A stretch of DNA of 43,345 nucleotides, taken from contig JAYUBO010000198.1 of the NCBI GenBank assembly GCA_043740815.1, positions 1 to 43,345 on the forward strand, given 5' to 3'. A model generated the notes under the pieces. The model saw only the letters and a program-made list of their open reading frames with translations. It made no database searches and had not been told where the DNA came from. The position numbers were made by a program, and so were the translations under genes. This stretch comes from Frankiales bacterium (GTDB lineage: Bacteria; Actinomycetota; Actinomycetes; Mycobacteriales; SCTD01). Shown piece by piece: positions 8,155-38,808 of this stretch. Position 1 is the stretch's first letter. Each line of letters begins with the position of its first letter.

Positions 8155-8188
8155 GGACGTGTCGGATCCAACCGGTCCCGACCTTGCC

Positions 8189-13739: not shown

Positions 13740-13743
13740 CGTC

Positions 13744-14772: not shown

Positions 14773-14808
14773 GCCCGCCTCCCCGCTCTCCCGAGACAAG
14801 GACCCACC

Positions 14809-16272
14809 ATGACCGCATTGGCTTCGCTGGAGCCCCGTGAGATCTTTGAGTACTTCGAGGTCCTCTCGTCTATCCCGCGCGGTTCGACGAACGAACGCCG
14901 CGTCGCCGACTGGATCGTCGATTTCGCCAACGAGCGTGGGTGCCACGCCGAGCGCGACGACCTGAACTGCGTGTTCGTCCGCAAGCCGGGCCAGCTGGGC
15001 CTGGAGAATGCCGAACCGCTGATCCTCCACGGACACCTCGACATGGTGTGCGAGAAGAACGAGGGTGTCGTCCACGATTTCGAGAAGGACCCGCTCACGC
15101 TGATCGTCGAGGGTGACTACATCACCGCCGATGGCACATCGCTGGGTGCGGATAACGGCATTGGGGTCTCCTACATTCTTGCGCTACTTGCCTCGACGAC
15201 TATTCCGCATCCGCCGCTGGAAGCAGTGCTCACGGCCATGGAGGAGAAGGGCAAGGTCGGGGCCTCACAATTCGACACGTCACGGCTCGCGGGCCGGCGG
15301 ATGATCGACTTCAACTGGATCACTGACAACGAAATCCTGGCTGGATGCAGCGGTGACATCACCTTCACCGTCGATATCCCCGCGGAATGGGAGCCGGCGC
15401 CGGCAACCCACACCGAGGCGCTGGTGTTGAAGGTGCGCGGACTCAACGGCGGTCACTGCGAGTTTGACATCCAGCTCGAGCGAGCCAACGCCGTGCTCGT
15501 CCTGGCGCGACTGCTCAATGAGGTGCTGGCCACCACCGATGCCCGCATCGCCAGTGCCCACGGCGGCGCCCAGAACAACGCCATCCCTATGGATGCGGAG
15601 GCGGTGGTCCTCGTTCGGCCAGACGCGGTCCAGAGCGTCATCGACGTCGTGAAGGTGCTTGGAGAACACCTCGCCGGCGAGTACAAGCTCGCGGATCCAG
15701 GAATCCGTCTCGAGTCCGAGACCTCGCAGGCTCCTGCGCAGGTCTTCTCCGTCGCGGCCGGTGAGCGCTTCGCGCGGTTGACGGCCCTGGTGCCGAACGG
15801 CGTCATCAGCTGGAGCTTGTCCGTCCCCGGCATCGTTGAGACCTCCAACAATCTGGGCACCATCCGGGCAACTGACGGGGGTGTCCGCCTGATGGCCACC
15901 ATCACGTCGGCCGTGTCCACCCGCAAGCACGAGGTGCTGGATCGTGTCCGTGCCCTCGCCGGCCTGGCGGGCGGGGGAGTCGTCGTGGAGTCCTACGGGC
16001 TCGACGCCGCTGAATTCCCGTACCAGCCCGATTCCCCCCTGCTGGCCATCGCCGTCAAGGCCTACCGCGAGATCAACAGCGAGGAACCCGACGTGCACGT
16101 GTCGCAATGCAGTCTCGAGCTGGGCATGTTCAGCAACAAGATCCCCGGACTCGACATCATCTCCATCGGCACGGAGCTGCACGACCTGCACTCACCAAAG
16201 GAGTCCGTGAGCCACGTTTCCGTGGCCAAAACGTGGCCCCTGGTGCGCGAAGTCGTCGGCCGCCTGGGCTGA
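14809..16272 (+). CDS. pepD: Aminoacyl-histidine (Xaa-His) dipeptidase, M20 family
   Basis: 487 aa. The segments LEPREIFEYFEVLSSIPRGSTNE, LHGHLDMVCEKN and TADGTSLGADNGIGVSY are PepD hallmarks. Confidence 0.85.
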   Translation: MTALASLEPREIFEYFEVLSSIPRGSTNERRVADWIVDFANERGCHAERDDLNCVFVRKPGQLGLENAEPLILHGHLDMVCEKNEGVVHDFEKDPLTLIVEGDYITADGTSLGADNGIGVSYILALLASTTIPHPPLEAVLTAMEEKGKVGASQFDTSRLAGRRMIDFNWITDNEILAGCSGDITFTVDIPAEWEPAPATHTEALVLKVRGLNGGHCEFDIQLERANAVLVLARLLNEVLATTDARIASAHGGAQNNAIPMDAEAVVLVRPDAVQSVIDVVKVLGEHLAGEYKLADPGIRLESETSQAPAQVFSVAAGERFARLTALVPNGVISWSLSVPGIVETSNNLGTIRATDGGVRLMATITSAVSTRKHEVLDRVRALAGLAGGGVVVESYGLDAAEFPYQPDSPLLAIAVKAYREINSEEPDVHVSQCSLELGMFSNKIPGLDIISIGTELHDLHSPKESVSHVSVAKTWPLVREVVGRLG

Positions 16273-16363
16273 GCCCCCTGGTCCACCCCTCGCGGACGCG
16301 TCCCCGACGCCCGAGTCACGTGCCGGCGGCACACCGACCCGACCACCCAGAAGGTGAAGACCC

Positions 16364-25052: not shown

Positions 25053-27797
25053 TCAGAGGTCGGGGTCGCCGGTGGAGGTGTCAGCGCGGGCACCCGCCTG
25101 GGCTCGTTGGGAGCGTTCCTGGATTTCCGACCAGACGGCGGTGTGGCTGTCGACGCACAGGACGACGAGGTCGCCGGTGCCGGCCAGGTCAAGGGCGCGG
25201 CGGGTGGCCTGCATCTCGTCGTGGACCTGTTCGACGACACCGCAGCGCGCCCCGTCTGCCATGGCGGCACGGGCACCGTCCTCGATGAGCGCCGCGACCT
25301 GACCACTGGGCCGCCCCCGCAGGCGTTTGTCCTCGCGTACGACGAGCAGGTCGAAGTGCCGCGCGGCGACCTCGCCGAGCTCGCGCATGTCCTCATCACG
25401 CCGGTCGCCAGCGGTGGCGATGACGCCGATCCGGCGGTGCCGCAGCAAGTCGTCGGTGGGCTGGTCGCTGAGCTTGTCGACGAAGTCGCCGAGCAGTCGC
25501 ATACCGGCCGCGTTGTGGCAGTAGTCGACGACGACGGTGATCCCGTCGATCTCGGTCACGTTGAGGCGGCCGGGCGCGAGGTAGTAGGACGTGGTGAACG
25601 TCCGCAGCCCCTGCCGGATGTCGTGCAGTGGAGCGCCCGCAGCGAAGGCGGCGCCAGCTGCGGCCATCGCGTTCTGGACGTTCATGATCGCCTTGCCGCC
25701 GAAAGTGGCGGGCAGCAGGTGCGTCCAGGCGAGCTGCATGGACCGTCGGCCGTGCCGGATCAAGATCATGTCGCCCAGGTCGCCGCGCTCGAGTACGACG
25801 GCCCGGCCGCCACGGCGGCAGTGGTCGTCGACCCTCTTCCAGACCGGCGTACCGGGCTGCGACATCGTGAACCACACGACCTGGCCGCTGCAGGAGCGGG
25901 ACATCTTGGCGACCAGCGGGTCGTCGGCGTTGAGGACCGCGAAGCCGTCGCGGGGTACCGCCTCGACGATGACCTGCTTCACCGTGGCCAGCTGCTCGAT
26001 GGTGTCGATGCCACCGAGCCCGAGGTGGTCGGGGGAGACGTTCAGGACGACCGCGACGTCGTTGCGCTCGTAGCCCAGGCCTTCGCGCAGTAGGCCTCCG
26101 CGGGCGACCTCGAAGACGGCGAAGTCGACGCGCGGGTTCTGCAGCACCATCCGGGCGCTCTTGGGGCCGGACGCGTCAGCCCGGATGACCAGGCGCTCGT
26201 CGATGACGATGCCGTCGGTCGAGGTCATCCCGACCTTGCGGCCCAGGCCTTTGAAGATGTGCGACACCATTCGCGACGTCGTCGTCTTGCCGTTGGTGCC
26301 GGTGATCGCGACGATGGGGATGCGGGAGGGGGTACCGGGCGGGAACAGCAGGTCGATGACGGGCTTCGCGACGTACTGCGGCTCGCCGACCGTCGGGTTG
26401 GTGTGCATCCGGAAGCCCGGGGCGGCGTTGACCTCGACGATGCCGCCGCCAACCTCACGGACCGGGTCGGAGATGTCGACGGCCATGAAGTCGATGCCGG
26501 CGACGTCGAGGCCGACGACGCGGGCCGCCTCCTCGGCGATCTCGACGTTGTCCGGATGGGCTTCGAGGGTCCGGTCGATCGAGATGCCGCCGGTCGACAT
26601 GTTGGCAGTCAGCGTGAGCTTTACCATGACGCCCCGGTCAGGGACGGCGGACCGGGTCAGGCCCTGCGCGCCAAGCAGCTCGTCGGCCGCCTCGTCGAGG
26701 GCGATCCTGGTGAGGACCTTCTCGTGGCCGACGCCCCGGCGGGGGTCGGCGTTCGTGACCTCGACCAGCTCGGCGACGGTCTGGACGCCGTCGCCGATGA
26801 CGTGGGCCGGCACCCGCTCGGCGACGGCGACCATCCGGCCGCCGACAACCAGGAACCGGTAGTCGCTGCCCACCAGGTAGGTCTCGACGATGACCCAGCC
26901 GCGGCGGGACTCGCTTTTGGCGACGTCGAAGGCTTTCGCGACCGCTGCGTCGTCACGCAGGTCGAGCCCGACCCCGCGCCCGTGGTTGCCGTCGGCCGGC
27001 TTCAGCACGACCGGGAAGCCGATCCGATGGGCGACCTCCAACGCGTCGTCGAGTGTCCGGACGGCCTTGGACTGCGGCACCGGCAGCCCAGCCGAGGACA
27101 GCAGCTGCAGGGTCATCTCCTTGTCGCTCGCGATGTCGACCGCAAGCGAGCCCGTCTGGGAGGTCATGGTGGCCCGGATCCGTTTTGCGTGGACCCCCTG
27201 CCCGAGCTGCACGAGCGACGCGGTGTTGAGTCGCATCCACGGGATGTCTCGGGACACGGCCTCATCGACCAGCGACTGGGTCGACGGCCCGAAGGCGGCC
27301 TTCTGGGCGAGCAGCAGCAGCCGCTCGATCTCGCCGCCGGGGTCGAGGTTGGGCTCGGCCTGCACGAGGTGATTCACCAGCCGGACGGCGAGCTTGCCGG
27401 CCGCGACCCCGACGGTCTCATCGGAATAGGCGTAGATCACGTCGTACACCCCGGGTCGGCCGGCGGTGCCCCGGGTCTTGCCACGCGACACGTCGGCGCC
27501 GGTGAGCTTTTGCAGCTCCAGGGCGACGTGCTCCGCGACGTGCCCGAGCCAGGTGCCCTCGTCAAGGCGCTCGGCAAAGCCACCGGCCTTGCGTCGTGAG
27601 CAGGAGTGCTCGCCGACGCCGGGAAGCAGTGCGAGCAGCGCCTCGGTGAAGCCCGGGATCAGGTCGGTCGGGAACTGCTCGAGACCCCCCAGGTCGACCT
27701 GCAGGTGTACCGCCGGGTCATACGACCAGTAGTTCGGTCCGCGGTAGACGCGGCTCGACACGATCGTCAGGTCGGGCGACGGCAGGGAGGTGGTCAT
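25053..27797 (-). CDS. cphA: Cyanophycin synthetase (N, ATP-grasp G and Mur-ligase M domains)
   Basis: 914 aa. N-domain: RVYRGPNYWSY, GEHSCS, GTWLGHVAEHVALELQ. ATP-grasp region: FPVVLKPADGNHGRGV, VNAAPGFRMH. M-domain: ITGTNGKTTT, DHLGLGGI. The start overlaps the cphB stop (ATGA). Confidence 0.93.
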   Translation of the reverse strand: MTTSLPSPDLTIVSSRVYRGPNYWSYDPAVHLQVDLGGLEQFPTDLIPGFTEALLALLPGVGEHSCSRRKAGGFAERLDEGTWLGHVAEHVALELQKLTGADVSRGKTRGTAGRPGVYDVIYAYSDETVGVAAGKLAVRLVNHLVQAEPNLDPGGEIERLLLLAQKAAFGPSTQSLVDEAVSRDIPWMRLNTASLVQLGQGVHAKRIRATMTSQTGSLAVDIASDKEMTLQLLSSAGLPVPQSKAVRTLDDALEVAHRIGFPVVLKPADGNHGRGVGLDLRDDAAVAKAFDVAKSESRRGWVIVETYLVGSDYRFLVVGGRMVAVAERVPAHVIGDGVQTVAELVEVTNADPRRGVGHEKVLTRIALDEAADELLGAQGLTRSAVPDRGVMVKLTLTANMSTGGISIDRTLEAHPDNVEIAEEAARVVGLDVAGIDFMAVDISDPVREVGGGIVEVNAAPGFRMHTNPTVGEPQYVAKPVIDLLFPPGTPSRIPIVAITGTNGKTTTSRMVSHIFKGLGRKVGMTSTDGIVIDERLVIRADASGPKSARMVLQNPRVDFAVFEVARGGLLREGLGYERNDVAVVLNVSPDHLGLGGIDTIEQLATVKQVIVEAVPRDGFAVLNADDPLVAKMSRSCSGQVVWFTMSQPGTPVWKRVDDHCRRGGRAVVLERGDLGDMILIRHGRRSMQLAWTHLLPATFGGKAIMNVQNAMAAAGAAFAAGAPLHDIRQGLRTFTTSYYLAPGRLNVTEIDGITVVVDYCHNAAGMRLLGDFVDKLSDQPTDDLLRHRRIGVIATAGDRRDEDMRELGEVAARHFDLLVVREDKRLRGRPSGQVAALIEDGARAAMADGARCGVVEQVHDEMQATRRALDLAGTGDLVVLCVDSHTAVWSEIQERSQRAQAGARADTSTGDPDL

Positions 27798-28714
27798 GAC
27801 GATGCGCCCTCCTGGCTGAGGCGACGGGGGACGTTGCCCACCGCTCCCTCGACGGCGATCAGCCGCTCGACCCTGCTGCGCACATGAGGGGGCTCGCGCA
27901 GGTCGTCGGGACGCCCACCGACACCGGGGAGCAGCAGGCGGGCGGCGAGGTCGAAACGGGCTCCAGCCGGCAGCGAGTGCACCACCATGCCCGACACGAG
28001 GATGGGTGCGCTCCGGGCAGCGGTGTCGATGTTGGACGTGGCGGTCCGGCCGTCGAACAGCGTGACGGCGCCGCGACCGATGACCTCGAGCAGATGCCCC
28101 TGCGTGATGATGGCTGCTGTGTCCTCATCGACGCCCATGCCGAGCAGGTGCGGGGCGTGCGACACCAGGGTCAGCAGCCGGCCATAACGGTTGCGCTGGT
28201 CGAAGTGCTGGTCGATCACCAGCCCGGGCAGCAGGCCCAGCCCGGCCGACATCTGGGCGCCACGCATCTTGGGCGTCGTACCGGGGGGGCCGAAGGCGAC
28301 CATGTGCTCGCTCTGGACCGAGGCGCCGGCAGAGGTGCCACCGACGACCACCCCCCGGATGTGGGCCATCTTGATGGCCGTTCCGAACGTCGTGCCGGCC
28401 AGGACCGCTGACAACGTCGACTGGTTGCCACCGGTCATGAAGATGCCGGTCACGTCGTGCAGCTGGGCGACCTGGTGCGGATCCTCAGCGTCAGCGCGGG
28501 TGCGCGGCCGGGGCGCCACGACGTCGGTGACACCGAGCTTGCCGAAGGCCTCGCGGTAGGCATCGATGATCTCCGCACCGAGCGAAGAGGCGGTCGCGAT
28601 GACCGCGACCTTCGCGCCAGGACCGCCGGCGAGCTTGGCGAAGCGGGCGAGAACCTGACGCGCGCCGGTCTTGTCCTCGGCGCCGCCGATGACCATCAGG
28701 GGGCCGGTCGTCAT
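27794..28714 (-). CDS. cphB: Cyanophycinase (peptidase S51)
   Basis: 306 aa. Contains MVIGGAEDK, FMTGGNQ, GGTSAGAS (nucleophile Ser) and VIDQHF..RNRYGRL. It is translationally coupled to cphA. Confidence 0.9.
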   Translation of the reverse strand: MTTGPLMVIGGAEDKTGARQVLARFAKLAGGPGAKVAVIATASSLGAEIIDAYREAFGKLGVTDVVAPRPRTRADAEDPHQVAQLHDVTGIFMTGGNQSTLSAVLAGTTFGTAIKMAHIRGVVVGGTSAGASVQSEHMVAFGPPGTTPKMRGAQMSAGLGLLPGLVIDQHFDQRNRYGRLLTLVSHAPHLLGMGVDEDTAAIITQGHLLEVIGRGAVTLFDGRTATSNIDTAARSAPILVSGMVVHSLPAGARFDLAARLLLPGVGGRPDDLREPPHVRSRVERLIAVEGAVGNVPRRLSQEGASS

Positions 28715-28795: not shown

Positions 28796-29281
28796 TCAGG
28801 GGCCGGGCGGCGGGTATCCGGGTGCGGGCGGGTTGGCGGCCGGCTTGGACGGCAGTTGCTCACCGGAGCGCTTGAAGTTCAGGAAGGCGAAGTAGGTCAT
28901 CGCTGCGGAGATCACGATGCCGAGGTAGAAACCGAAGGCAGGGTGCAGGTGGTTGCTGAACCCGGCGACGAACTGCAGCAGCAAGATGACAGTCGCGAGC
29001 CCGGTGGCGGCGAGCGTGATGAGGTTGACCCCAGCGGGGAGCTTGACGCTGTCGAGGGCGCCCATGAGCCTTGCCACGACGATCCCACCGGCGACGAGGG
29101 AAAGCAGGATCGCCAGCTTCGGCCAGCCGTAGGACCCGTTGCCCCAGGCGTTGACGCTCACGCTGAAGCCGCTCGCGCTGAAGGCCCGCCAGGAGAAGAA
29201 GCTGACGAGCAGCAGCAGGACGGCCCCACCGGCGATGTACCGGTCGTTGCCCTGCACCTTGTTGATGTCGAACTCGGCCAT
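28796..29281 (-). CDS. Hypothetical integral membrane protein with Pro-rich C-terminus
   Basis: 161 aa with four hydrophobic segments and the tail PSKPAANPPAPGYPPPGP. It lies 81 nt upstream of cphB on the same strand. Confidence 0.65.
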   Translation of the reverse strand: MAEFDINKVQGNDRYIAGGAVLLLLVSFFSWRAFSASGFSVSVNAWGNGSYGWPKLAILLSLVAGGIVVARLMGALDSVKLPAGVNLITLAATGLATVILLLQFVAGFSNHLHPAFGFYLGIVISAAMTYFAFLNFKRSGEQLPSKPAANPPAPGYPPPGP

Positions 29282-29471: not shown

Positions 29472-30425
29472 GTGCATCAGGTAGCGGTCATCTCCGGGGG
29501 GCTCTCCCACGAGCGGGACGTGTCGGTGCGCTCCGGGCGCCGACTTGCCGAGCAGCTCGTCAAGGCCGGGCTCGACGTCGACCACTGGGACGTCGACGAG
29601 CGCTTCGTCGGTCTGGTCTCAGACCGTGACGCCGACGTGGCCTTCGTCGCGCTGCACGGCGGGTCCGGCGAGAACGGCACGGTCCAGGCCCTGCTCGAGC
29701 TCGCCGGGCTGCCCTACGTCGGGTCGACGGCCGGCGCCTGCCGGGGCGCCTACGACAAGGCCATCGCCAAGACCCGCATGGTCGAGGCCGGCCTGTCTAC
29801 GCCGGCGTGGGTGACTCTGCCCAGCACGATTTTTCGCGAGGTGGGCCCGGAGAACCTCTACCACCTGGTCGACTCGGTCATCGGGCTGCCGTTGGTCGTC
29901 AAGCCCGTCACCGGTGGCTCCTCCCTCGGGGTGACCGTCGTCCGTGAGGAGAAGGACCTGCCGGGGGCGCTCGTCCAGGCCTACGCCTACGCGCCCGACG
30001 TCCTGCTCGAGGCCTACGTCCTCGGCCACGAGGTGACCGTCCCCGTCCTCGACCTCGGCGAGGGCCCCAAGGCGCTGGCGCCGATGCTCATCGAGCTGCC
30101 CGAAGGCACCGTCTACGACTACCAGGCCCGGTACGACGCCTCGTCCAACGTCCGCTACACCTCGCTGAGCGACGACGACCCGCGGGTCGACGTCGCCGCG
30201 GTGCGCGCCGTCGCCGAGCGGGTCCACAGCCTGCTGGGGCTGCGCGACCTGTCGCGCGTTGATGTGATCGTCGGGACGGACGGCGTGCCGCAGGTCCTTG
30301 AGGCGGCGGTCACGCCAGGGCTCACCGAGACGTCCACGTTTCCGCTGGCGGTCACCAGCGCAGGCCTTGAGCTCAGCGAGGTCTACGCGACCCTCGTCGG
30401 CAACGCGAAGAAGCGCGGCGGCTGA
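29472..30425 (+). CDS. D-alanine--D-alanine ligase family ATP-grasp protein (divergent, DdlB-length)
   Basis: 317 aa. Contains VAVISGGLSHERDVSVRSG, HGGSGENGTVQALLELAGLPYVGS, VVKPVTGGSSLGV and SRVDVIV...LEAAVTPGLTETS. It has Arg where DdlB has Lys215 (YQARY) and Ala where DdlB has Asn272 (EAA instead of ExN). Confidence 0.8.
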   Translation: MHQVAVISGGLSHERDVSVRSGRRLAEQLVKAGLDVDHWDVDERFVGLVSDRDADVAFVALHGGSGENGTVQALLELAGLPYVGSTAGACRGAYDKAIAKTRMVEAGLSTPAWVTLPSTIFREVGPENLYHLVDSVIGLPLVVKPVTGGSSLGVTVVREEKDLPGALVQAYAYAPDVLLEAYVLGHEVTVPVLDLGEGPKALAPMLIELPEGTVYDYQARYDASSNVRYTSLSDDDPRVDVAAVRAVAERVHSLLGLRDLSRVDVIVGTDGVPQVLEAAVTPGLTETSTFPLAVTSAGLELSEVYATLVGNAKKRGG

Positions 30426-30426
30426 G

Positions 30427-31134
30427 GTGGCGCTGACCGCCCTGCTCGACGGTGCGGTGCTGGCCGAAAAGACCGGGGACAACCCCCAGGTGCTCGCCCT
30501 GCACGGCTGGGGACGGACCCGCGCCGACTGGCTGCCGGTCCTCGCCGGGGTGGCCGCTCTCGCCGTCGACCTGCCTGGCTTCGGTGCCTCCCCGGAGCCG
30601 GCCACCGCCTGGGGCGCACGGGACTACGCCGAGCTTCTTGCCCCGGTCCTCGCGGGTGGCGGCTGGACCGTGGCGGGCCACTCCTTCGGTGGACGCGTCG
30701 CCGTACACCTGGCCGCGGGGTGGCCCTCGCTGATCTCCAAGGTGGTCCTGACAGGCGTCCCGCTGCTACGGACGACGTCCACGGCTAAGGCGCCGCTGGC
30801 GTTCCGGCTGGCCAGGAAGGCCCACCGGCTCGGCCTGCTCTCGGACGACGCGATGGAGCAGCAGCGGCGGGCGCGCGGCTCCACGGACTACCGCAACGCC
30901 ACCGGCGTGATGCGGGACACCCTGGTACGCCTGATCAACGAGGACTACCGCGAGCAGCTGGTGCGCATCGAGGCGCCGGTGGAGCTGGTGTGGGGTGCGT
31001 CGGACACCGCCGCGCCCTTGGCGATGGCCCGGGAGGCCTGTGGGCTGTTGGCGCACGGGACGCTGAGCGTCTCCGAGACGAGCGGCCATCTGCTCGACGA
31101 GGGGCTGTACGAGCTGCTGGCGCGGGCCCTGTGA
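30427..31134 (+). CDS. Alpha/beta hydrolase
   Basis: GTG 30427 lies 1 nt after the ddl-like stop. Contains LALHGWG, the nucleophile elbow GHSFGG, GASDTA (Asp) and SGHLL (His). The stop overlaps the next start (GTGA). Confidence 0.75.
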   Translation: MALTALLDGAVLAEKTGDNPQVLALHGWGRTRADWLPVLAGVAALAVDLPGFGASPEPATAWGARDYAELLAPVLAGGGWTVAGHSFGGRVAVHLAAGWPSLISKVVLTGVPLLRTTSTAKAPLAFRLARKAHRLGLLSDDAMEQQRRARGSTDYRNATGVMRDTLVRLINEDYREQLVRIEAPVELVWGASDTAAPLAMAREACGLLAHGTLSVSETSGHLLDEGLYELLARAL

Positions 31135-32633
31135 GCGTGCTGGTGCAGCTGCTGTGTGTCGCGGCAGCCGTGGCAGGGACCCCCCGCTGGCTGCGCGTCG
31201 CCCAGCGCGAGCACTACCTCCCCGGATCGGTGCTCTGGACCGAGCAGCTCTGGCTGAGCCGATCCCTGCCGTCAGTGTTGCTCTACCTGCCGGTCATCGG
31301 GTTGTTTGCCCTCGGGGTCGTCGTGAGCCCGTGGTTCTACGTCGGTGCCGCGGTCCTCGCGCAGACCACCCCGCTCGGGCTGCCCTACCGGGGGCGCACG
31401 TCGCGGCTGGCCTGGACGCCCCGGCTCCGCCGGCTCTGCGTCGTACTGGGGCTGCTCGTCGTTCTCGTCGCGGTCTGGTCACCTGCGCTGGCCAGCTGTA
31501 CGTCGCTGTTCCTCACAGCCCTGGTCGACCTGGCGTTGCTGAGCCTGACGCCGGTCGAGAAGAAGCTGTCCAGCGCCTTCCTCGAGCAGGCCCGGGCCAA
31601 GGTCGCAAAGGTCCGGCCGACGGTCGTCGCCATCACCGGGTCCTTCGGCAAGACGACCACCAAGAACTACCTCGCGCACCTGCTCGCGCAGACCCACACG
31701 GTGCTCGCGAGCCCCGCCTCCTTCAACAACGCGATGGGGCTGTCGCGGGCCGTCAACGAAGGCCTGGTCCCGGGGACGGAGGTGTTCGTCGCCGAGATGG
31801 GTACCTACGGCGAGGGTGAGATCCGCAGGCTGTGCGAGGTGTTCCCGCCCGACATCGCCGTGATGACCGCCATCGGCGAGGTGCACCTGCAGCGGATGAA
31901 GACGCGCGCGGGTGTGCTGCGTGCGAAGACCGAGATCACCGAAAAGGCCCGCACGGTCGTGCTCAACGTCGACGACGACCTGCTCGCCGGTCTCGCTGTT
32001 TCCCTTGCCGCACAAGGCAAACAGGTCCTCCGCTGCTCGGTGCTCACGGTCGATGCGGACGTCTGCATCGTGGAGGGAGTGCTGCATGTACGCGGGGACG
32101 AGGTCGGTCCCGTCACCCTGCCCGACGCCGTCCACCCGGCGAATGCGGCCTGCGCGGTCGGGGCTGCCGTGGCGCTCGGCGACGACCCGGCCGCCCTGCT
32201 CGGACGCCTCGCGACGATCCCCAACGTGGCCCACCGCCTGGAGCCGGTCGCCCAGCCTGGCGGCAGCTGGATCCTCGACGACACCTACAACTCCAACCCT
32301 GCCGGAGCCGCAGAAGCGGTACGCCGGGCGGTGTTGCTCGCCTCCCGCTCAGGTGGTCGTGTGCACGTCGTCACCCCCGGAATGGTCGAGCTCGGCGCCT
32401 ATCAGAAGGTCCGAAACACCGAGCTCGGCAAGGCCGTGGCTGATGCAGGGGCGGCCACCCTCGTGGTGGTCGGTCGGACCAACCTCCGTGCCCTGCGCAA
32501 AGGTGGATCGGGTGGTGGGACGCAGGTCCTGAAGGCCGCCACCCGCGAGGCCGCCGTCGCACTCGTCGGGACGAGGTCGGCCACCGGGGACGTCGTACTG
32601 TTCGAGAACGACCTCCCAGACCACTACCCCTGA
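31131..32633 (+). CDS. MurF-family Mur ligase with polytopic membrane N-terminal domain
   Basis: GTG 31131 overlaps the upstream TGA. The first ~140 aa are hydrophobic (LVQLLCVAAAVAG, VLLYLPVIGLFALGVVVSPWFYVGAAVLA, LCVVLGLLVVLVAVW, LFLTALVDLALLSL). Then come MurF-type motifs: AITGSFGKTTTKNYL, FNNAMGL, VAEMGTYGEGEI, AIGEVHLQRM, DDTYNSNPAGA and VTPGMVELG. Confidence 0.8.
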   Translation: MSVLVQLLCVAAAVAGTPRWLRVAQREHYLPGSVLWTEQLWLSRSLPSVLLYLPVIGLFALGVVVSPWFYVGAAVLAQTTPLGLPYRGRTSRLAWTPRLRRLCVVLGLLVVLVAVWSPALASCTSLFLTALVDLALLSLTPVEKKLSSAFLEQARAKVAKVRPTVVAITGSFGKTTTKNYLAHLLAQTHTVLASPASFNNAMGLSRAVNEGLVPGTEVFVAEMGTYGEGEIRRLCEVFPPDIAVMTAIGEVHLQRMKTRAGVLRAKTEITEKARTVVLNVDDDLLAGLAVSLAAQGKQVLRCSVLTVDADVCIVEGVLHVRGDEVGPVTLPDAVHPANAACAVGAAVALGDDPAALLGRLATIPNVAHRLEPVAQPGGSWILDDTYNSNPAGAAEAVRRAVLLASRSGGRVHVVTPGMVELGAYQKVRNTELGKAVADAGAATLVVVGRTNLRALRKGGSGGGTQVLKAATREAAVALVGTRSATGDVVLFENDLPDHYP

Positions 32634-32646
32634 TCGGAGCACCTTC

Positions 32647-33759
32647 GTGGGCCAGCTGGCCATCGTGTTCGGCGGACCGTCGCCGGAGCACGACATCAGC
32701 ATCCTGACCGGGCTGCTCAGTGAGCGGGTGCTGCGCGACGCGGGGCACGACGTCGCGCCCCTGTACTGGACGCGGACGGGGGAGTGGGTGCTGTGCCCCC
32801 CGCGCTCGGAGGCAAAGGACTTCCTGGAGGGTGCCCCGCGGGGTGCCACCAAGCTCGAGGTGACCCTCGGGGGCGGCTTTCAGACCCCCAAGAAAGGCCT
32901 CGGTGGCGGTAAGCCGCTCGCCCTGGACGTGGCCCTGAACTGCTGCCATGGCGGCGCCGGCGAGAACGGCGGCCTCAACGCGGTCTTCGACCAGCTCGGC
33001 CTCCCGATGACCGGCGGCCCCTCCACGCTGGCCGCCCTGGGCATGGACAAGCTCGCCTTCGGGGCGGTCCTGCAGGCCAACGCGATCCCGACCCTGCCGC
33101 GCGTCGCGCTCGGGGCCGAACAGGTCCCCTTCGACGGGCCGTACATCGTCAAGCCCCGCTTCGGTGGCTCGAGCATCGGGATCGAGGTGGTCGAGGACCT
33201 CGACACCGCCCGGGCGCTCGCCAGGACGTCGGTGCACCTGCGGCAGGGTGTCGTGCTCGAGCCGTTCTCCAAGGGCGCGATCGACCTGAACCTGGCCTAC
33301 TCGACGCACCCGTCCCTGCGCTTCTCGCTGCTCGAGAAGCCGCTCGCCCCGGCGGCCGCTGAAGGGATCTACTCCTACACCCAGAAGTACCTGCAGACCG
33401 ACGGGCTACAGGCCGCGCCCCGCGAGCTGCCCGCCCAGGTCCCCGCGGAGGTGACGGCCGAGGCAGAGCGCCTGGCGGGTGCCGTGCTCGCCGTGACGGG
33501 TCTGCGAGGTCTGGGGCGCCTGGACTTCCTGCTCGTCGACGACGTGCTCTACGTCAACGAGGTGAACACGATCCCCGGGTCCATGTCGCTCTACCTGTGG
33601 CCCTCGACGATCCCGGCCGCCGAGCTGCTGATGGGCTCCGTCGAGGAGGCCCGCGCCTCGTTCGGGTGGGCTGAGCCGGCGCCGTTCGAGCCCGGGGCTG
33701 CCCTGCGGGCGGCCGGAGGGATGGCCGGCAAGCTCGGTCAGATCGGCCAGAACCGGTAA
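32647..33759 (+). CDS. ddl: D-alanine--D-alanine ligase (DdlA-length, canonical active-site motifs)
   Basis: 370 aa with GTG 32647 after GGAG. Contains LAIVFGGPSPEHDISILTG, HGGAGENGGLNAVFDQLGLPMTG, VKPRFGGSSIGI, YTQKYL (Lys-Tyr retained) and GRLDFLL...NEVNTIPGSMS (ExN retained). Confidence 0.85.
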   Translation: MGQLAIVFGGPSPEHDISILTGLLSERVLRDAGHDVAPLYWTRTGEWVLCPPRSEAKDFLEGAPRGATKLEVTLGGGFQTPKKGLGGGKPLALDVALNCCHGGAGENGGLNAVFDQLGLPMTGGPSTLAALGMDKLAFGAVLQANAIPTLPRVALGAEQVPFDGPYIVKPRFGGSSIGIEVVEDLDTARALARTSVHLRQGVVLEPFSKGAIDLNLAYSTHPSLRFSLLEKPLAPAAAEGIYSYTQKYLQTDGLQAAPRELPAQVPAEVTAEAERLAGAVLAVTGLRGLGRLDFLLVDDVLYVNEVNTIPGSMSLYLWPSTIPAAELLMGSVEEARASFGWAEPAPFEPGAALRAAGGMAGKLGQIGQNR

Positions 33760-33827: not shown

Positions 33828-34580
33828 GTGACCGGTGGCTCGGGGGCGGGCAAGGCCACGGGCAAGCCCGCAGGGGTGTCGACGGGCCCGCGAGGGCGGC
33901 CAGCGGCGGGCGGCGGACGTTGGGTCAGCGTCGGACCGGAACGACTGACCAGGTGGGTCGAGGGCTTTGGTAACCGGCACGGCGCCTTCACGACAGCCGT
34001 GGGGGACGCGGCTGCTCCCGGGACGGTGGTGCTCGTCGCGGCGGACGGTTCCCAGGCGCATATCGAGGTGCCGTTTCCGCCGCTGGCTACCCCGACGGCT
34101 TCTCTGCTCGAGGCACTGCTGGCCCATGTCCTGGCGCCACGCACGGTGGGGGTGCTGCTGGTTCGGCTCGGGGGCTATGCCGCGGGCGTGTTCGACGGCG
34201 GCGTCCTGGTCAGCTCGAAGGTCGGCTCGCGGCAGGTCCACGGGAGGTCGGCTGCGGGCGGCTGGTCACAGCAGCGGTTCGCCAGGAGGCGGGAGGGTCA
34301 GGCCAGCGTCGCCCTGCAGTCGGCGGCCGACAACGCCGTCCGGATCCTCCTCGGCCGGCCCCTGGACGCGGTGGTGGTCGGTGGGGAGCGGACAGCCGTC
34401 GAAGCGGTACTCGACGACCGGCGACTCGCGGACGTGAAGGCGCTCGTCACAGGCCGGCTGCTCGACGTGCCCGACCCACGCTTGACGATTCTGCAGAAGG
34501 CGCCGTACCGGGACGTCTGGATCCGCGTGGTCGAGGCCGGGGGCCCTCCGCCGCTGCCCATGAAAGACTCACAGCCATGA
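33828..34580 (+). CDS. acVLRF1-like (Vms1/ANKZF1-type release-factor fold) putative peptidyl-tRNA hydrolase
   Basis: 250 aa. The core GYAAGVFDGGVLVSSKVGSRQVHGRSAAGGWSQQRFARRRE carries the GG-x-x-Q-type loop of the VLRF1 clade as I recall it. The exact start is uncertain because the N-terminus is Gly/Pro-rich. Confidence 0.65.
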   Translation: MTGGSGAGKATGKPAGVSTGPRGRPAAGGGRWVSVGPERLTRWVEGFGNRHGAFTTAVGDAAAPGTVVLVAADGSQAHIEVPFPPLATPTASLLEALLAHVLAPRTVGVLLVRLGGYAAGVFDGGVLVSSKVGSRQVHGRSAAGGWSQQRFARRREGQASVALQSAADNAVRILLGRPLDAVVVGGERTAVEAVLDDRRLADVKALVTGRLLDVPDPRLTILQKAPYRDVWIRVVEAGGPPPLPMKDSQP

Positions 34581-35942: not shown

Positions 35943-36677
35943 TCAGGGGACGGCGATCACCTTGAAGGACTCCGCGAGGCGCCCCTCTGGAAGACCACCG
36001 GCAATGGCGTTGGCGCCGAGCCAGCCACGAAGCATGCCCTCGAGGTCGTCCATGTGGGCGGTCTGGCTGACGTGCCTGCGCAGCGCCTCGACCTTGCGGT
36101 CGAAGGTGCCGGTCACGTCGACCCAGCGGTTGGCACCGCCGGAGGCGCCGGCAGCCATGACCCACACGTCGTGAACGCTCCAGGCGTCGAGGTTCTCGTC
36201 CTGCAGCAGCGAGGTGTGCGTGAAGGGGTTGCGCGCGTCGGGATAGACCGCACACAGCGTCGCCTCGCCCGCCGCCCGGTGGTCGGGGTGGGACGCGCCA
36301 AGGCGCTCCCAGTTGATCTCGGGGCTCTGCATCATCAGGCGCTGCGGGCGCACCTGGCGGATGACCCGGCTGATGTCGCGGCGCAGGTCGAACGACGCGA
36401 CGAGCTGACCGTCCGGGTAGTCCAGGAAGCGGACGTCGGCGACGCCGACCTCCTTCGCGGCAGCCCGCTGCTCGTCCCGCCGGATACCGGCGATGTCGGT
36501 GCGGGCGACCGCCGGGTCGAAGCCGCCGGCGTCCCCGGCGGTACACAGCAGGTAGGTGACCTCGATGCCTTCGTCGGTCCAGCCCGCGATGGTCCCCGCC
36601 GCGCCGAAGTCGATGTCGTCGGGGTGGGCCACCACGACCAGGGCCCGTTCGGTCTTCGTCGTGTCGGAATCGCTCAT
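35943..36677 (-). CDS. PIG-L/LmbE family deacetylase
   Basis: 244 aa. Contains ALVVVAHPDDIDFGAAGTIA and HPDHRAAG, the zinc-binding motifs of the family. Confidence 0.85.
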   Translation of the reverse strand: MSDSDTTKTERALVVVAHPDDIDFGAAGTIAGWTDEGIEVTYLLCTAGDAGGFDPAVARTDIAGIRRDEQRAAAKEVGVADVRFLDYPDGQLVASFDLRRDISRVIRQVRPQRLMMQSPEINWERLGASHPDHRAAGEATLCAVYPDARNPFTHTSLLQDENLDAWSVHDVWVMAAGASGGANRWVDVTGTFDRKVEALRRHVSQTAHMDDLEGMLRGWLGANAIAGGLPEGRLAESFKVIAVP

Positions 36678-36772: not shown

Positions 36773-37678
36773 ATGCGCAAGCTTGACCCGAGCGAGCTCT
36801 ACGAGCTGGACCCCGACCGTCCCGACGTCTCCGGTGCCGTCCTCGTGCAGGCCCTGGACGGCTTCATCGACGCCGGCGGTGCCCGCAAGCTCGCCTCACA
36901 GCACCTTTTGGACACCCTGGACAGCACCGTGGTGGCGCGCTTCGACCACGACCAGCTGTTCGACTACCGGGCCCGCCGGCCGATCATGGTCTTCGCCAGG
37001 GACCACTGGGAGTCCTACGACACTCCCCAGCTGGCCCTGCACCTGCTCCACGACCTCGCCGGCAACCCCTTCCTCGTGCTCGCCGGCCCTGAGCCGGACG
37101 TGCAGTGGGAGCGCTTCGTGGCCGCTGTCGAGCAGCTCTGCAAAGTCCTCGGCGTACGACGGAGCATCGGACTGAACGCCATCCCCATGGGTCTGCCCCA
37201 CACCCGACCGGTCGGGGTCATCGCACATGGCGTGCCACGGTCGCTGGTCGAGGGCTACGAGCCGTGGGTCGAGACCGTCCAGGTACCGGCGTCGGCGGGC
37301 CACCTGCTCGAGTTCCGGCTCGCGGAGGCCGGCTACGAGGCGATGGGGTTCGCCGTACACGTGCCGCACTACGTCGCCCAGAGCAGCTATCCGGCGGCGG
37401 CGGCGCAGCTGGTGCGTGAGGTCGCCAAGAGCGGGGGCCTCGACCTGCCGGTCGACGCGCTGGACGCCGCGGCGCTGGCCACCCGCGAGGCCCTGGACGA
37501 GCAGGTCGCCGGCGCCCCCGAGGTCGCCGAGGTCGTCCGACAGCTCGAAGAGCAGTACGACGCATTTCTGCGCGGCCGCACCGAGCACGATGCGATCGCG
37601 GAGTCCGACCTGCCCACCGCCGACGAGCTCGGTGCCGAGCTCGAGCGTTTCTTGGCCCAGCAGCCGCCCCGCGACTGA
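36773..37678 (+). CDS. PAC2 (proteasome assembly chaperone 2-like) family protein
   Basis: 301 aa. The segments LVQALDGFIDAGGA, FDYRARRPIM, LAGPEPDVQWERF and NAIPMGLPHTRP are typical of actinobacterial PAC2 proteins. Confidence 0.8.
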   Translation: MRKLDPSELYELDPDRPDVSGAVLVQALDGFIDAGGARKLASQHLLDTLDSTVVARFDHDQLFDYRARRPIMVFARDHWESYDTPQLALHLLHDLAGNPFLVLAGPEPDVQWERFVAAVEQLCKVLGVRRSIGLNAIPMGLPHTRPVGVIAHGVPRSLVEGYEPWVETVQVPASAGHLLEFRLAEAGYEAMGFAVHVPHYVAQSSYPAAAAQLVREVAKSGGLDLPVDALDAAALATREALDEQVAGAPEVAEVVRQLEEQYDAFLRGRTEHDAIAESDLPTADELGAELERFLAQQPPRD

Positions 37679-37686: not shown

Positions 37687-38808
37687 CTAGCCGGTCGGCG
37701 AGGCGCTCAGGCCGGTGCAGGAGCGCAACTGCTGCCAGGCCGCGACCGCTCGGTCGGGTGAGCTGAGCGCGCGGGGCGTGCCCCCGCTGATGACGGCAGG
37801 CGTCCACCGTGACTGCTCGACGGTGCGGCCGCGCAGGGTGAGGGTGAGCACGCCGGAGACGGCCTGCGGACCTGGGCGGGCGTAGAAGGCGAAGTTGCCC
37901 AACCCGTAGTCCACGTAGGTCTGTCCCAGGTAGCCCGCGCCCTGCAGGACGTGCGCATGTGAGCCCACGACGACGTCGGCGCCGGCCTCGGACAGCTGGT
38001 GGGCGAGGCCTTGCTGGGTGCCGCTCGGGCAGCTCGTACGCTCCTCGCCCCAGTGCAGGTAGACGACGACCACGTCCGCCTCGGCACGTGCGGCCCTGAC
38101 CGCCTGGAGCGTCCGCGACACGTCTTTCGCGGACGCGAGCCCGGCCTTGTCCGGACCAGCCGTCCACGCCGTCCGGACCGCGTCGTCCAGGACCTGCGTG
38201 GCTCCGAGGAACGCAACCCGCGTCCCCCGCACCGTGAACACCTTCGCCCGGTACGCCGCGTGATCGTCCCTCCCGACCCCGACGACGGGGAAACCTGCCG
38301 TGCGGGCCGCGTCGAGGGAGTCCTGCAGGCCGACCGGCCCGTAGTCGATGCCGTGGTTGTTTGCCCCCGTCACCACGTCGATGCCGGCGCCCCGGAGGGC
38401 GGTGAACGCGGACGGGGGCGCGCGGAACACGAACTGCTTGCTCACCGGCGTACCACGGGTGGTGATCGCGGTCTCGAGGTTGACCATGGCGAGGTCGGAG
38501 GCGGAAAGGACCGAGCGCAAGGGACCGATCGCGGTAGCAGGGTCGTTCGCCAGGCGGCCGGCAAGGACTCCTTGGAAGTGGACGTCGCCAGCAAACGACA
38601 CGGTCAGCTTGCCTGTGCTGCTGGTGCTCGGCCGGCGCGAGGGTGTGGGCGAGGGTGTGTGCGCCGGGGTTCGTGGAGCGGCCGCCTGGGTCTGCGCGGA
38701 CGAGGGCAGGCTGCGCGTGGTTGGTGAGCCGGCGGAGCAGGCAGCGAGCGTCACCGGAAGGGCGAGCGCGGTCGCGGTCAGCAGGCGACGAGACCGCGGC
38801 GAGAGCAC
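37687..38808 (-). CDS. CapA family (PGA_cap metallophosphatase-like) lipoprotein
   Basis: 373 aa with a GTG start. Signal peptide with lipobox TLAACSAG. Contains FAGDVHF, NLETAIT, GANNHGIDYG and HWGEE. Confidence 0.85.
   Translation of the reverse strand: MLSPRSRRLLTATALALPVTLAACSAGSPTTRSLPSSAQTQAAAPRTPAHTPSPTPSRRPSTSSTGKLTVSFAGDVHFQGVLAGRLANDPATAIGPLRSVLSASDLAMVNLETAITTRGTPVSKQFVFRAPPSAFTALRGAGIDVVTGANNHGIDYGPVGLQDSLDAARTAGFPVVGVGRDDHAAYRAKVFTVRGTRVAFLGATQVLDDAVRTAWTAGPDKAGLASAKDVSRTLQAVRAARAEADVVVVYLHWGEERTSCPSGTQQGLAHQLSEAGADVVVGSHAHVLQGAGYLGQTYVDYGLGNFAFYARPGPQAVSGVLTLTLRGRTVEQSRWTPAVISGGTPRALSSPDRAVAAWQQLRSCTGLSASPTG

Follow-up and report, generated by a model that had tools for sequence, protein, structure and literature searches.

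A gene in a 43,345-nt stretch of DNA from a Frankiales bacterium (the whole stretch analysed here, referred to below as the window) encodes a ligase that, judged by its sequence, is a real and functional-looking member of the Mur ligase family with a variant architecture, as yet uncharacterised. We propose that it belongs to an ancient paralogous line of MurF-type Mur ligases that has exchanged domain 1 for a small integral-membrane domain, and that it would join a dipeptide made by a Ddl-like enzyme to an acceptor held at the membrane; we give this reading a probability of about 0.45. By gene order, the ligase is the middle member of a conserved three-gene module, in which it follows an alpha/beta-hydrolase of ~235 aa and precedes a Ddl-like ATP-grasp ligase. 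Full-text literature searches returned nothing on a transmembrane (TM)-fused MurF-like ligase or its role.

Reading frame and Mur ligase domains

The gene and the parts of its product that resemble known Mur ligases are as follows.

31131 to 32633, plus strand: TM-MurF-like ligase gene, 500 aa plus stop codon
31632 to 32039, plus strand: Mur ligase central (ATP-binding) domain, PF08245, residues 168-303
32232 to 32603, plus strand: Mur ligase C-terminal domain, PF02875, residues 368-491, with the MurF-type DDTYNSNP at 383-390
32604 to 32630, plus strand: family-specific C-terminal tail E-N-D-L-P-D-H-Y-P, invariant in alignment A1 and in place of the canonical MurF KGSR...E ending

The ligase is read in one frame from a GTG at 31131 to a stop codon at 32631-32633, giving 500 aa. 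Third-position GC content (GC3) in this frame is 0.91 over 31131-31640 versus 0.55 over the upstream in-frame extension (30990-31130), and when GC3 is followed frame by frame, the high-GC3 frame changes exactly at 31131. The GTG shares 4 nt with the TGA of the hydrolase gene upstream (GTGA), a stop/start overlap that recurs in 30 of 41 related loci. Conservation was assessed over 86 full-length cluster representatives with 29-56% identity to the window ligase (some counts below use 87 sequences); twelve N-terminal positions are at least 95% identical among the 86. A public protein collection already contains the identical 500-aa product. The GC3 switch, the 4-nt overlap, the residue conservation and the public gene call together make GTG 31131 well supported as the true start.

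The first-pass annotation had named an internal start near the P-loop, with the hydrophobic frame upstream left untranslated, as the case that would undo its claim. We regard such an annotation artefact as having a negligible chance of being correct. Long open frames do arise easily in a GC-rich region such as this one, and we found no other support for it; against it stand the high GC3 of the ligase frame with its sharp switch at 31131, N-terminal residue conservation that persists to 29% identity and across phyla, the conserved stop/start overlap, the same 500-aa product among public gene calls and a confident AlphaFold2 (AF2) model of the N-terminal region (pLDDT 92). As far as sequence evidence goes, GC3, overlap, conservation and the public product exclude the internal start.

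Pfam recognizes only Mur_ligase_M (168-303) and Mur_ligase_C (368-491) in the protein, and both pass the thresholds for the Mur ligase superfamily (PF08245, 88.7 bits against a cut-off of 24; PF02875, 37.1 against 28.4). Every motif quoted in the first-pass annotation is in place: AITGSFGKTTT at residues 167-177, FNNAMGL at 198-204, EMGTYGEGEI at 222-231 and DDTYNSNP at 383-390. The key features of the central domain, the P-loop T169-G-S-x-G-K-T175, N199-N200, E222, H252 and K266, are invariant, common to Escherichia coli MurF and at least 95% conserved in the family. The catalytic set of the superfamily (G170, K174, T175, E222, H252 and K266) aligns with that of E. coli MurF and is at least 96% conserved over 87 sequences. 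In the C-terminal domain, D383, D384, N387 and N389 are likewise common to E. coli MurF, whose corresponding motif is DDSYNAN; DDTYNSNP and N199-N200, which mark the MurF type, both align with that enzyme. The catalytic motifs thus appear intact and the gene looks functional, in keeping with the earlier assessment.

MurF is also the best match of the ligase in sequence and fold (~25-27% identity), which bears out the original assignment. The top NCBIfam model is TIGR01143 (murF), at 177.9 bits versus a cut-off of 288.6, and PDB sequence and fold searches both rank MurF first (3zl8, 1gg4, 4qf5). With MurF (TIGR01143; 1GG4, 3ZL8, 4QF5, 4CVM) the ligase shares the central ATP-binding and C-terminal domains, including the P-loop, the NN motif, the Mg-binding Glu and His, a Lys at the carbamylated-lysine position and DDxYNxNP; like MurF, it is gene-linked to ddl genes. 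The MurF equivalog models score far under their cut-offs (NF008041, 87 against 551; NF010693, 80.5 against 544). Of the 418 profile positions of TIGR01143, the match covers 58-403 and leaves out the initial ~57, which correspond to domain 1, and the PDB alignments begin at MurF residue ~70-90, equivalent to ligase residue ~132-150. By these alignments the UDP-binding domain 1 of MurF is absent from the ligase, as had been supposed. Unlike MurF, the ligase carries a membrane domain with invariant motifs of its own in that place, reaches 178 rather than 289 bits, ends in ENDLPDHYP instead of KGSR..E, has an obligate hydrolase partner and falls in a separate clade. Tails of the form ENDLPD[HN]x predominate among the 86 representatives. 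An ENDLPD-type tail is also found in an Amesbacteria locus (L042) and an Oscillospiraceae locus (L043); two further loci from outside the actinobacteria (L044, L055) have canonical-MurF-like ends.

The N-terminal membrane domain

The region upstream of the ligase domains contains the following features.

31131 to 31553, plus strand: N-terminal membrane domain, residues 1-141, delimited by hydropathy, Hessa-scale sums and AF2 helices
31185 to 31226, plus strand: Motif 1, R19-W-L-R-V-A-Q25-R-E27-H28-Y29-L-P-G32, following TM1 on the predicted cytoplasmic face
31371 to 31433, plus strand: Motif 2, P81-x-G-L-P-x-R87-G-R-T-S-x-L-x-W95-T96-x-R98-x-R-R101, in a basic cytoplasmic loop preceding TM4
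31551 to 31613, plus strand: P141-V-E143 and the linker helix (141-161), unbroken from TM5 into the first strand of the P-loop domain

Residues 1 to ~141 contain between two and five membrane helices, with segments at ~2-18 (TM1), 46-64 (TM2), 66-82 (TM3, a short helix plus an extended stretch), 101-117 (TM4) and 120-140 (TM5), and an interfacial helix at 33-44. On the Hessa scale, 19-residue windows sum to 1.0 kcal/mol from residue 48, -1.0 from 102 and 2.0 from 119; two more, from residues 3 (5.6) and 64 (8.1), are marginal, and the minimum within the ligase part is 9.2. AF2 places helices at 2-26, 33-44, 46-64, 68-77, 97-114, 118-126 and 128-161 with pLDDT of ~90-92. Pfam has no match on residues 1-147. 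Together with the hydropathy sums and the modelled helices, this upholds the central claim of the first-pass annotation, that membrane helices stand in place of the usual soluble N-terminal domain; its estimate of the size (about 140 aa) and of the number of hydrophobic stretches (four to five) was accurate.

Positive charges are grouped in the loops at 19-45 and 83-100, and the predicted topology has the N-terminus outside and the C-terminus inside. Because this topology places the ATP-dependent domains in the cytoplasm, both basic invariant loops obey the positive-inside rule. Conservation in the membrane domain is concentrated in cytoplasm-facing loops and at helix ends (Q25, E27, H28, Y29, W41, P81, T96, R98, P141 and E143), and the bilayer-spanning parts are variable. 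Motif 1 is invariant in alignment A1, with Q25, E27, H28 and Y29 at least 98% identical over 87 sequences, and its Gln and Tyr are invariant in a cross-phylum alignment (QLKEY, QIEEY, QLNSY). Within Motif 2, P81 and R98 are conserved at 100% and T96 at 98%; the counterpart in other phyla is [KR]-x-P-L-x-[WF]-T-x-[KR], with the Thr invariant. P141 and E143 are conserved at 96% and 97%, the Pro being invariant across phyla. They open the linker PVEKKLSSAFLEQARAKVAKV (residues 141-161), which aligns with MurF residues ~71-97 and which AF2 models as the end of a single helix (128-161) followed by a strand at 164-169. Since TM5 is continuous with the helix preceding the P-loop strand, the catalytic cleft should sit directly on the inner membrane surface, a placement that we take from secondary structure.

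The membrane domain has no Pfam or NCBIfam match and no relative in the PDB; Foldseek of a separate model of the N-terminal region against the PDB gave nothing better than E=3. It may be a new small helical fold, or may merely be too small for Foldseek. The Lipocone superfamily was considered as a home for it, and PMC12419801 makes no mention of MurF or Mur-ligase fusions. A profile search with the membrane domain recovered 355 cluster representatives, nearly all of them ligases of ~500 aa with the domain at the N-terminus.

Partner genes and distribution

The ligase is flanked by three genes that bear on its function.

29472 to 30425, plus strand: Ddl1, DdlB-type D-Ala-D-Ala-ligase-like, Pfam Dala_Dala_lig_N and _C
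30427 to 31134, plus strand: alpha/beta-hydrolase, ~235 aa, cytoplasmic, GHSFGGR nucleophile elbow, Pfam Abhydrolase_6 and Abhydrolase_1
32647 to 33759, plus strand: Ddl2, 370-aa Ddl-like ATP-grasp ligase, Pfam Dala_Dala_lig_N and _C

The module was found in 43 actinobacterial loci. The hydrolase lies directly upstream of the TM ligase in all 43, and also in four loci from other phyla (L042, L043, L044, L055); from the arrangement of the two genes, hydrolase and ligase are translationally coupled. The motifs LHGW, LPGF, HSFGGR, DY, WG..D and GH of the hydrolase are invariant across phyla, and its nearest solved structures are esterases, lipases, the monoacylglycerol lipase ABHD6 and PHB depolymerase, not peptidases. 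Ddl2 is found downstream of the TM ligase in 36 of the 43 loci. It scores under the NCBIfam Ddl cut-offs (TIGR01205, 162 against 246), its best PDB match being Mycobacterium tuberculosis Ddl (96 bits), and it retains all catalytic residues. S281 (E. coli DdlB numbering) is replaced by Tyr in 28 of 31 Ddl2 sequences, and the omega-loop is longer.

Ddl1, a second ddl gene that adjoins the module in some lineages only, is in the source organism the first gene of a tight four-gene array, with its stop at 30425, 1 nt ahead of the hydrolase start. It reaches 235 bits on NCBIfam NF002378 (cut-off 243), and its best PDB match is E. coli DdlB (154 bits). It has the changes K215R and N272A, as do all six of the other module-adjacent actinobacterial copies.

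Four other neighbours, acVLRF1, UbiA, PIG-L and PAC2, were rejected as module components, their synteny being confined to close relatives. Apparent Rosetta-stone fusions of hydrolase and ligase (P0200, P0245, P0264 and P0241, with the membrane domain internal) were set aside as well: the R/P-rich sequence at their junctions is read-through of the kind that frameshifts produce across the 4-nt gene overlap, and we therefore take no evidence of a physical complex from them. A PGA_cap gene lies 5 kb from the module, outside the conserved set. The window also holds a genuine cphA1 (25053-27797), unrelated to the module.

Beyond the actinobacteria, the hydrolase-ligase pair with the same N-terminal motifs occurs in Ca. 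Amesbacteria, another Patescibacteria MAG, Oscillospiraceae and an unclassified bacterium, with neighbours that include Ddl, FemAB, DegT and FtsA. The Patescibacteria members adjoin either a Ddl that passes the NCBIfam cut-offs or FemAB and FtsA. Non-actinobacterial members are nearer to canonical MurF (238-257 bits on TIGR01143); a word-indexed search with their N-terminal profile gave only eight matches, mostly fragments. The fusion is recurrent across distant phyla and not a one-off. In a neighbour-joining tree, the TM-type ligase domains form one clade with 80% bootstrap, which supports a single origin. Canonical soluble MurF occurs in the same bacterial families (Oscillospiraceae loci L047, L049, L067 and L074). 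On these comparisons the ligase is a distinct paralogous family and not an altered housekeeping MurF; neither this nor the cross-phylum module figured in the first-pass annotation. Genes of this type are currently labelled 'MurF' or 'Mur ligase family protein', and at least one carrier, Nocardioides sp. YR527 (L005), is in culture. Closed MAG chromosomes with the module include OZ251535.1, OZ253443.1, OZ243951.1 and OZ241858.1.

Acceptor, mechanism and alternative functions

In the mechanism that we favour, the Ddl-like enzyme would make a D-aminoacyl-D-amino acid dipeptide, and the N-terminal domain would hold the acceptor at the inner face of the membrane. The ligase would phosphorylate the acceptor carboxylate and then attach the dipeptide to the activated group. 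For the acceptor, the most plausible candidate is a muropeptide linked to polyprenyl diphosphate and still incomplete in its stem, such as the lipid I/II tripeptide; the basic and polar interfacial motifs would then assume the pyrophosphate contacts made by domain 1 in soluble Mur ligases. The hydrolase would probably prepare or edit the acceptor, for instance by unmasking its carboxylate. A link to the cell wall is suggested by the second ddl gene that adjoins the module in several lineages; given the kinship of the hydrolase with esterases and lipases, a lipid or ester would be no worse a candidate substrate than a muropeptide.

To our knowledge, MurT is the sole Mur-type enzyme known to act on lipid-linked precursors. 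As part of the MurT/GatD lipid II amidotransferase, this Mur-ligase homologue uses lipid I/II in place of UDP-linked precursors, requires a partner enzyme encoded beside it and is described as soluble, without a transmembrane domain (PMC6085368). Like the ligase, MurT has no domain 1, and its action on lipid II gives a precedent for the proposed role; MurT/GatD is the closest functional analogy to the mechanism outlined above. The MurT partner is a glutaminase and ammonia is transferred, whereas the transfer proposed for the ligase is of a dipeptide; no GatD-like glutaminase was found among the ligase neighbours, which are alpha/beta-hydrolase and Ddl-like genes instead. The two proteins share only trivial similarity (23.6 bits, with a cut-off of 800, NF052464 / NF045635; E 7e-5 in the PDB search). 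The first-pass annotation had argued for an acceptor embedded in the membrane or for tethering of the enzyme to a membrane machine; this is a reasonable suggestion, to which the invariant motifs facing the cytoplasm and the MurT analogy add weight.

The ligase could instead have conventional MurF activity (UDP-MurNAc-tripeptide plus D-Ala-D-Ala) and be merely anchored in the membrane, the domain serving as an anchor or docking platform from which product might be handed to MraY, and the enzyme perhaps being the only MurF in small-genome lineages such as Patescibacteria. The best match in sequence and fold is indeed MurF, with DDxYNxNP and the catalytic residues retained, and the CPR members reach 238-257 bits on TIGR01143, two of them with canonical-MurF-like ends, beside Ddl, FemAB and FtsA. 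Given these closer scores and neighbours, the non-actinobacterial members could be the ordinary MurF of their cells, working on the ordinary soluble substrate. We nevertheless consider a simple anchored MurF unlikely, because the Mur ligase domain that binds uridine and contacts the pyrophosphate is absent (PMC6085368), and a plain anchor needs neither twelve positions conserved at 95% or more nor motifs shared across phyla. It would also leave the obligate, translationally coupled hydrolase unexplained. The actinobacterial proteins, moreover, fall well under the MurF cut-off (178 against 289 bits) in a clade of their own, and the same families possess canonical soluble MurF.

A product outside peptidoglycan is similarly improbable in our estimation. 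Here the hydrolase would free or uncover a carboxylate, such as that of a fatty acid or acidic head group, on a lipid of the membrane or a polymer linked to lipid. The TM ligase would then cap this group with the Ddl-made dipeptide, and the product would be a lipo-dipeptide or an envelope polymer decorated with peptide. There are loose analogies. PgsB/CapB is an amide ligase of the Mur ligase superfamily that is membrane-associated through an N-terminal hydrophobic segment, and cyanophycin synthetase, with an ATP-grasp G domain and a Mur-like M domain, combines ATP-grasp and Mur-type ligases in one pathway, as the module would. The esterase, lipase, ABHD6 and PHB depolymerase relatives of the hydrolase favour such a product, as do the un-MurF-like ENDLPDHYP tail and the altered second-subsite residue (S281Y) and longer omega-loop of Ddl2, and an acyl or prenyl chain could be held by the membrane domain. 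Yet the conserved positions are polar or basic and sit at the membrane interface instead of inside the bilayer, and the recurring neighbours are the cell-wall genes ddl, FemAB and FtsA. PgsB/CapB differs from the ligase in its partners, PgsC and PgsA, and in its product; CapB is grouped with FPGS and not with MurE/MurF (PMC11915815), no PgsB or CapB model is among the NCBIfam matches of the ligase at E<=0.01, and no conserved PgsC or PgsA neighbour of the module was found. The cyanophycin synthetase score is as trivial as that of MurT (TIGR02068, 16.5 bits against a cut-off of 850), being confined to the P-loop region, and at the loci examined the conserved neighbours of the module include no gene for a polymerase or for polymer export.

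It is highly improbable that the ligase domains are catalytically dead or regulatory and that the protein is a membrane sensor or scaffold. Scores under the family cut-offs and the unusual N272A of the neighbouring Ddl1 would fit such a loss, but P-loop, E222, H252, K266 and DDTYNSNP are all common to E. coli MurF and conserved at 95% or more in the family, and Ddl2 keeps its full catalytic set.

Returning to dipeptide transfer onto a membrane-held acceptor, a more specific form, which we regard as doubtful but conceivable, is that the trio constitutes an ancient cross-phylum pathway that finishes or repairs the D-Ala-D-Ala end of the stem on lipid I/II. It would then be a membrane counterpart of the cytoplasmic MurF step, with the ligase perhaps the sole MurF-type enzyme in some small-genome Patescibacteria.

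In the textbook view, assembly of the peptidoglycan stem peptide is strictly cytoplasmic and takes place on UDP-MurNAc. A MurF-type ligase built into the membrane, served by a dipeptide supplier and a hydrolase dedicated to it and conserved in Actinomycetota, Patescibacteria and Bacillota alike, would indicate an unrecognised membrane-level step in envelope biosynthesis; completion of the stem peptide, its repair or formation of a new lipid-linked peptide are candidate roles. Such a step would matter for annotation, because of the labels that these genes now carry, and bears on how antibiotics that target D-Ala-D-Ala are read in organisms with the module. Because Nocardioides sp. YR527 is a cultured carrier, the question is open to direct testing.

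Catalytic core and gene start of the TM ligase

The MurF-like ligase with an N-terminal membrane domain (TM ligase) is encoded by an ORF that runs from a GTG at 31131 to 32633 (+) and yields 500 aa, in a window of ~70% G+C. All motifs quoted in the first-pass annotation are found in this ORF where they had been placed; they are listed here with the two domains that Pfam recognises:

Residues 141-161: linker PVEKKLSSAFLEQARAKVAKV
Residues 167-177: P-loop AITGSFGKTTT
Residues 168-303: Mur ligase central domain (Pfam)
Residues 198-204: FNNAMGL
Residues 222-231: EMGTYGEGEI
Residues 368-491: Mur ligase C-terminal domain (Pfam)
Residues 383-390: DDTYNSNP

Several observations place the start at 31131 rather than at an internal codon near the P-loop. 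GC3 in the ligase frame is 0.91 across 31131-31640 versus 0.55 in the in-frame upstream extension, and the high-GC3 frame changes from the upstream gene to the TM ligase exactly at 31131. The GTG and the stop codon (TGA) of the preceding hydrolase gene form a 4-nt overlap, also seen in 30 of 41 related loci, and the ATG starts of homologues align with the GTG. Moreover, an identical 500-aa product is already present in a public protein collection, which means that gene calls made independently arrived at this start as well. That this start was wrongly called is thus exceedingly improbable.

Within the Mur ligase superfamily, the TM ligase is nearest to MurF. The top NCBIfam model is TIGR01143 (murF), whose cut-off of 288.6 bits is not reached (177.9 bits); profile positions 58-403 of 418 are matched, and hence the first ~57 positions, corresponding to MurF domain 1, have no counterpart. 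MurF structures (3ZL8, 1GG4, 4QF5 and 4CVM) ranked top both in a PDB sequence search and in a Foldseek search with an AlphaFold2 model (pLDDT 88.4, pTM 0.83). In the alignments, the first MurF residue included is ~70-90, which pairs with residue ~132-150 of the TM ligase. Residues 1-147 gave no Pfam match. As had been proposed from the sequence alone, the UDP-binding domain is genuinely absent, and the protein departs from MurF in both curated score and domain 1. The family C-terminal tail, ENDLPDHYP, likewise differs from the canonical MurF C-terminus (KGSR...E). Database labels for the family read 'MurF' or 'Mur ligase family protein'; assignment as MurT, PgsB/CapB or cyanophycin synthetase was rejected by the NCBIfam search. 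Common to the TM ligase and E. coli MurF are the P-loop, N199/N200, E222, G229-E230-I231, H252, A265-K266, R369, D383/D384/N387/N389 and E420/G422. With these residues in place, the ligase part looks MurF-like and catalytically competent, in keeping with the initial view of a functional gene, and a dead or purely regulatory protein is very unlikely.

The membrane domain and its distribution

Hydrophobic helices ahead of the P-loop, already noted at first reading, were recovered by two approaches. In a scan of 19-residue windows, Hessa-scale sums were 1.0, -1.0 and 2.0 kcal/mol for windows starting at residues 48, 102 and 119, and marginal at 3 and 64 (5.6 and 8.1); the ligase part has no window below 9.2. 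AlphaFold2 places helices at 2-26, 33-44, 46-64, 68-77, 97-114, 118-126 and 128-161, the last running unbroken through the linker helix to the first strand of the P-loop domain. Modelled by itself, the membrane domain reaches a pLDDT of 92; no fold relative was found in the PDB at E<3. Because the ATP-dependent domains must be cytoplasmic, the basic segments 19-45 (four K/R) and 83-100 (five K/R) should be cytoplasmic too. The predicted topology is N-out/C-in with five spans, the first and third being the weakest. Among 86 full-length representatives, 29-56% identical to the window protein, Q25, E27, H28, Y29, W41, P81, T96, R98, P141, E143, A154 and P163 are at least 95% identical. Most of these 12 positions fall in predicted cytoplasm-facing loops and helix ends, while bilayer-spanning residues vary freely. 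The ligase core is thus rigidly joined to a membrane domain, and the conserved residues of the latter are on its cytoplasmic side.

At identities as low as 49%, over 100 full-length (~500-aa) homologues align along the entire protein. When a profile built from the first 162 residues was searched against 1.84 billion cluster representatives, 355 proteins matched, 231 of them at E≤1e-10. Almost all are ~500-aa ligases with the membrane domain at the N-terminus; the domain therefore appears specific to the TM ligase. Scanning one genome per species, followed by tblastn, yielded 43 actinobacterial loci from Frankiales-like MAGs, Acidimicrobiia, Nocardioides sp. YR527, Microbacteriaceae, Propionibacteriaceae and Egibacteraceae. 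Weaker matches of the same scan include TM-fused MurF-like ligases from Ca. Amesbacteria (L042), Patescibacteria (L055), Oscillospiraceae (L043) and an unclassified source (L044), the four loci on which breadth beyond Actinomycetota rests. The remaining matches (L045-L080) are ordinary soluble MurFs, several from Oscillospiraceae, with the P-loop at ~110-145 in nearly all.

Q25, Y29, T96 and P141 are invariant in the alignment of the actinobacterial N-terminal regions with these four. Outside Actinomycetota, the motif after TM1 (R19-G32) contains QLKEY, QIEEY or QLNSY versus QREHY in the window protein, the motif before TM4 (P81-R101) reads [KR]xPLx[WF]Tx[KR], and P-x-E comes after the final helix, matching the actinobacterial proteins. 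In the Amesbacteria protein, the membrane domain consists of just the interfacial helix and the final two spans, pointing to the surface on the cytoplasmic side, not the complete bundle of helices, as the conserved core. When only ligase domains were used for a neighbour-joining tree, a modest, distance-based method, TM-type ligases form one clade with 80% bootstrap (actinobacterial subclade 100%, non-actinobacterial 87%), which agrees with a single origin.

A conserved gene module and its surroundings

An alpha/beta-hydrolase gene (~235 aa) lies directly upstream of the TM ligase in 43 of 43 actinobacterial loci, and a ~370-aa Ddl-like ATP-grasp protein (Ddl2) is encoded downstream in 36, two of the seven exceptions being contig ends. 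In the window, these genes and a DdlB-type gene (Ddl1) form a very tight array:

30425 to 30427 (+): Ddl1 stop, then hydrolase GTG
31131 and 31134 (+): ligase GTG, overlapping the hydrolase stop
32633 to 32647 (+): ligase stop, then Ddl2 start

Ddl1 adjoins the module in several lineages, where it precedes the module on the same strand or follows it in convergent orientation. The hydrolase is also directly upstream in all four non-actinobacterial loci, overlapping the ligase gene by 4 nt in L042 and L043; L042 carries a convergent Ddl, and in L055 the ligase is followed by DegT, FemAB and FtsA genes. The TM ligase is thus always co-encoded with a serine hydrolase, mostly translationally coupled, and usually with a Ddl-type ligase. 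In three MFD-series MAG contigs (L036, L038 and L051), hydrolase, ligase and Ddl2 appear as several tblastn fragments in differing frames, for which assembly frameshifts are a simpler explanation than pseudogenes.

Hydrolases from the different phyla are orthologues (LHGW, LPGF, HSFGGR, DY, WG..D and GH in common). The nucleophile elbow is intact, and the solved structures closest in a profile search belong to esterases, lipases, ABHD6 and PHB depolymerase rather than to peptidases. In E. coli DdlB numbering, Ddl2 retains E15, H63, K97, K144, S150, E180, K215, Y216, R255, D257, E270, N272 and G276. Of 31 sequences, 28 have Tyr instead of S281, and the omega-loop is longer, so the second-substrate site may be altered. 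The extended loop carries a conserved GL..APRE[LF]PA stretch in the window protein and 30 orthologues. The Amesbacteria Ddl partner (L042 5770-6945, -) has Phe at position 281, yet scores above the NCBIfam Ddl cut-offs. Ddl1 scores just below the NCBIfam Ddl cut-off (235 vs 243) and has K215R and N272A (also in E. coli DdlB numbering) in seven of seven actinobacterial copies, including those of the window, L001, Nocardioides sp. YR527, L028, L030 and L040; the Firmicute Ddls in the alignment retain K and N. As N272 is a Mg2+ ligand in ATP-grasp enzymes, Ddl1 may be atypical or impaired.

Other genes in the window are as follows:

1-16300: ordinary housekeeping and transport functions, with IMPDH-like gene, GMP synthase, BKACE enzyme, SorC-type regulator, epoxide hydrolase, M20 peptidase; sugar ABC transporter (binding protein, two permeases, ATPase)
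23339-24991 (+): 550-aa cyanophycin-synthetase M (Mur-like) domain alone, without the ATP-grasp domain
25053-27797 (-): cphA1
27794-28714 (-): cyanophycinase-type S51 peptidase
28796-29281 (-): 161-aa ORF
33828-34580 (+): acVLRF1-family release-factor-like (peptidyl-tRNA hydrolase) gene, 257 bits on NF041024
34577-35620: UbiA prenyltransferase
35943-36677 (-): PIG-L deacetylase
36773-37678 (+): PAC2 protein
37687-38808 (-): PGA_cap protein
38877-41135 (+): PcrA/UvrD helicase

The 550-aa protein, which adjoins cphA1 and the peptidase gene, matches profile positions 475-846 of TIGR02068 (344 bits) and shares 39% identity with the cphA1 M domain; its 145-aa N-terminus is unassigned. Relative L081 has a similar-size gene (544 aa, no Pfam match on record) at the equivalent position. 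The 161-aa ORF (GC3 0.89, several hydrophobic stretches, Pro-rich C-terminus) gave no Pfam match and has a 62% identical copy in L001. The acVLRF1 gene directly follows Ddl2 and overlaps the start of UbiA, an order kept in close relatives only; relatives L081-L083 share the synteny of PIG-L, PAC2 and UvrD. With synteny limited to close relatives, acVLRF1, UbiA, PIG-L, PAC2 and PcrA were rejected as module parts. No dcw cluster or canonical murF was found within the 43-kb window.

Possible function and novelty

We propose the following tentative model, to which we assign a probability of roughly 0.45. Ddl2 would produce a D-aminoacyl-D-amino acid dipeptide, either D-Ala-D-Ala or a different one; the TM ligase would activate a carboxylate of an acceptor at the inner membrane surface and attach the dipeptide; the acceptor would be a muropeptide that is linked to a lipid and lacks a complete stem, prepared or edited by the hydrolase. 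The strongest support for a lipid-linked acceptor is the precedent of MurT/GatD, which amidates lipid I and lipid II and none of the UDP-linked precursors (PMC6085368). MurT likewise lacks domain 1; in the TM ligase, a membrane domain with basic and hydrogen-bonding interfacial motifs takes its place.

It is rather unlikely that the protein is a conventional MurF that is merely membrane-tethered, an explanation that gains plausibility for the Patescibacteria-type (CPR) members, with their closer MurF scores and cell-wall contexts. We consider it equally doubtful that the acceptor is a non-peptidoglycan lipid or polymer, which the esterase-like character of the hydrolase would favour.

A recent survey of Mur-domain families lists twelve members; its passages that name MurC-F, the four Mur ligases of archaea, MurT, CapB, CphA and FPGS describe no TM-fused MurF-like family (PMC11915815), and our literature search found nothing on this architecture. 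We regard the TM ligase as an established catalytic core set in a new architecture, inside a new conserved module.
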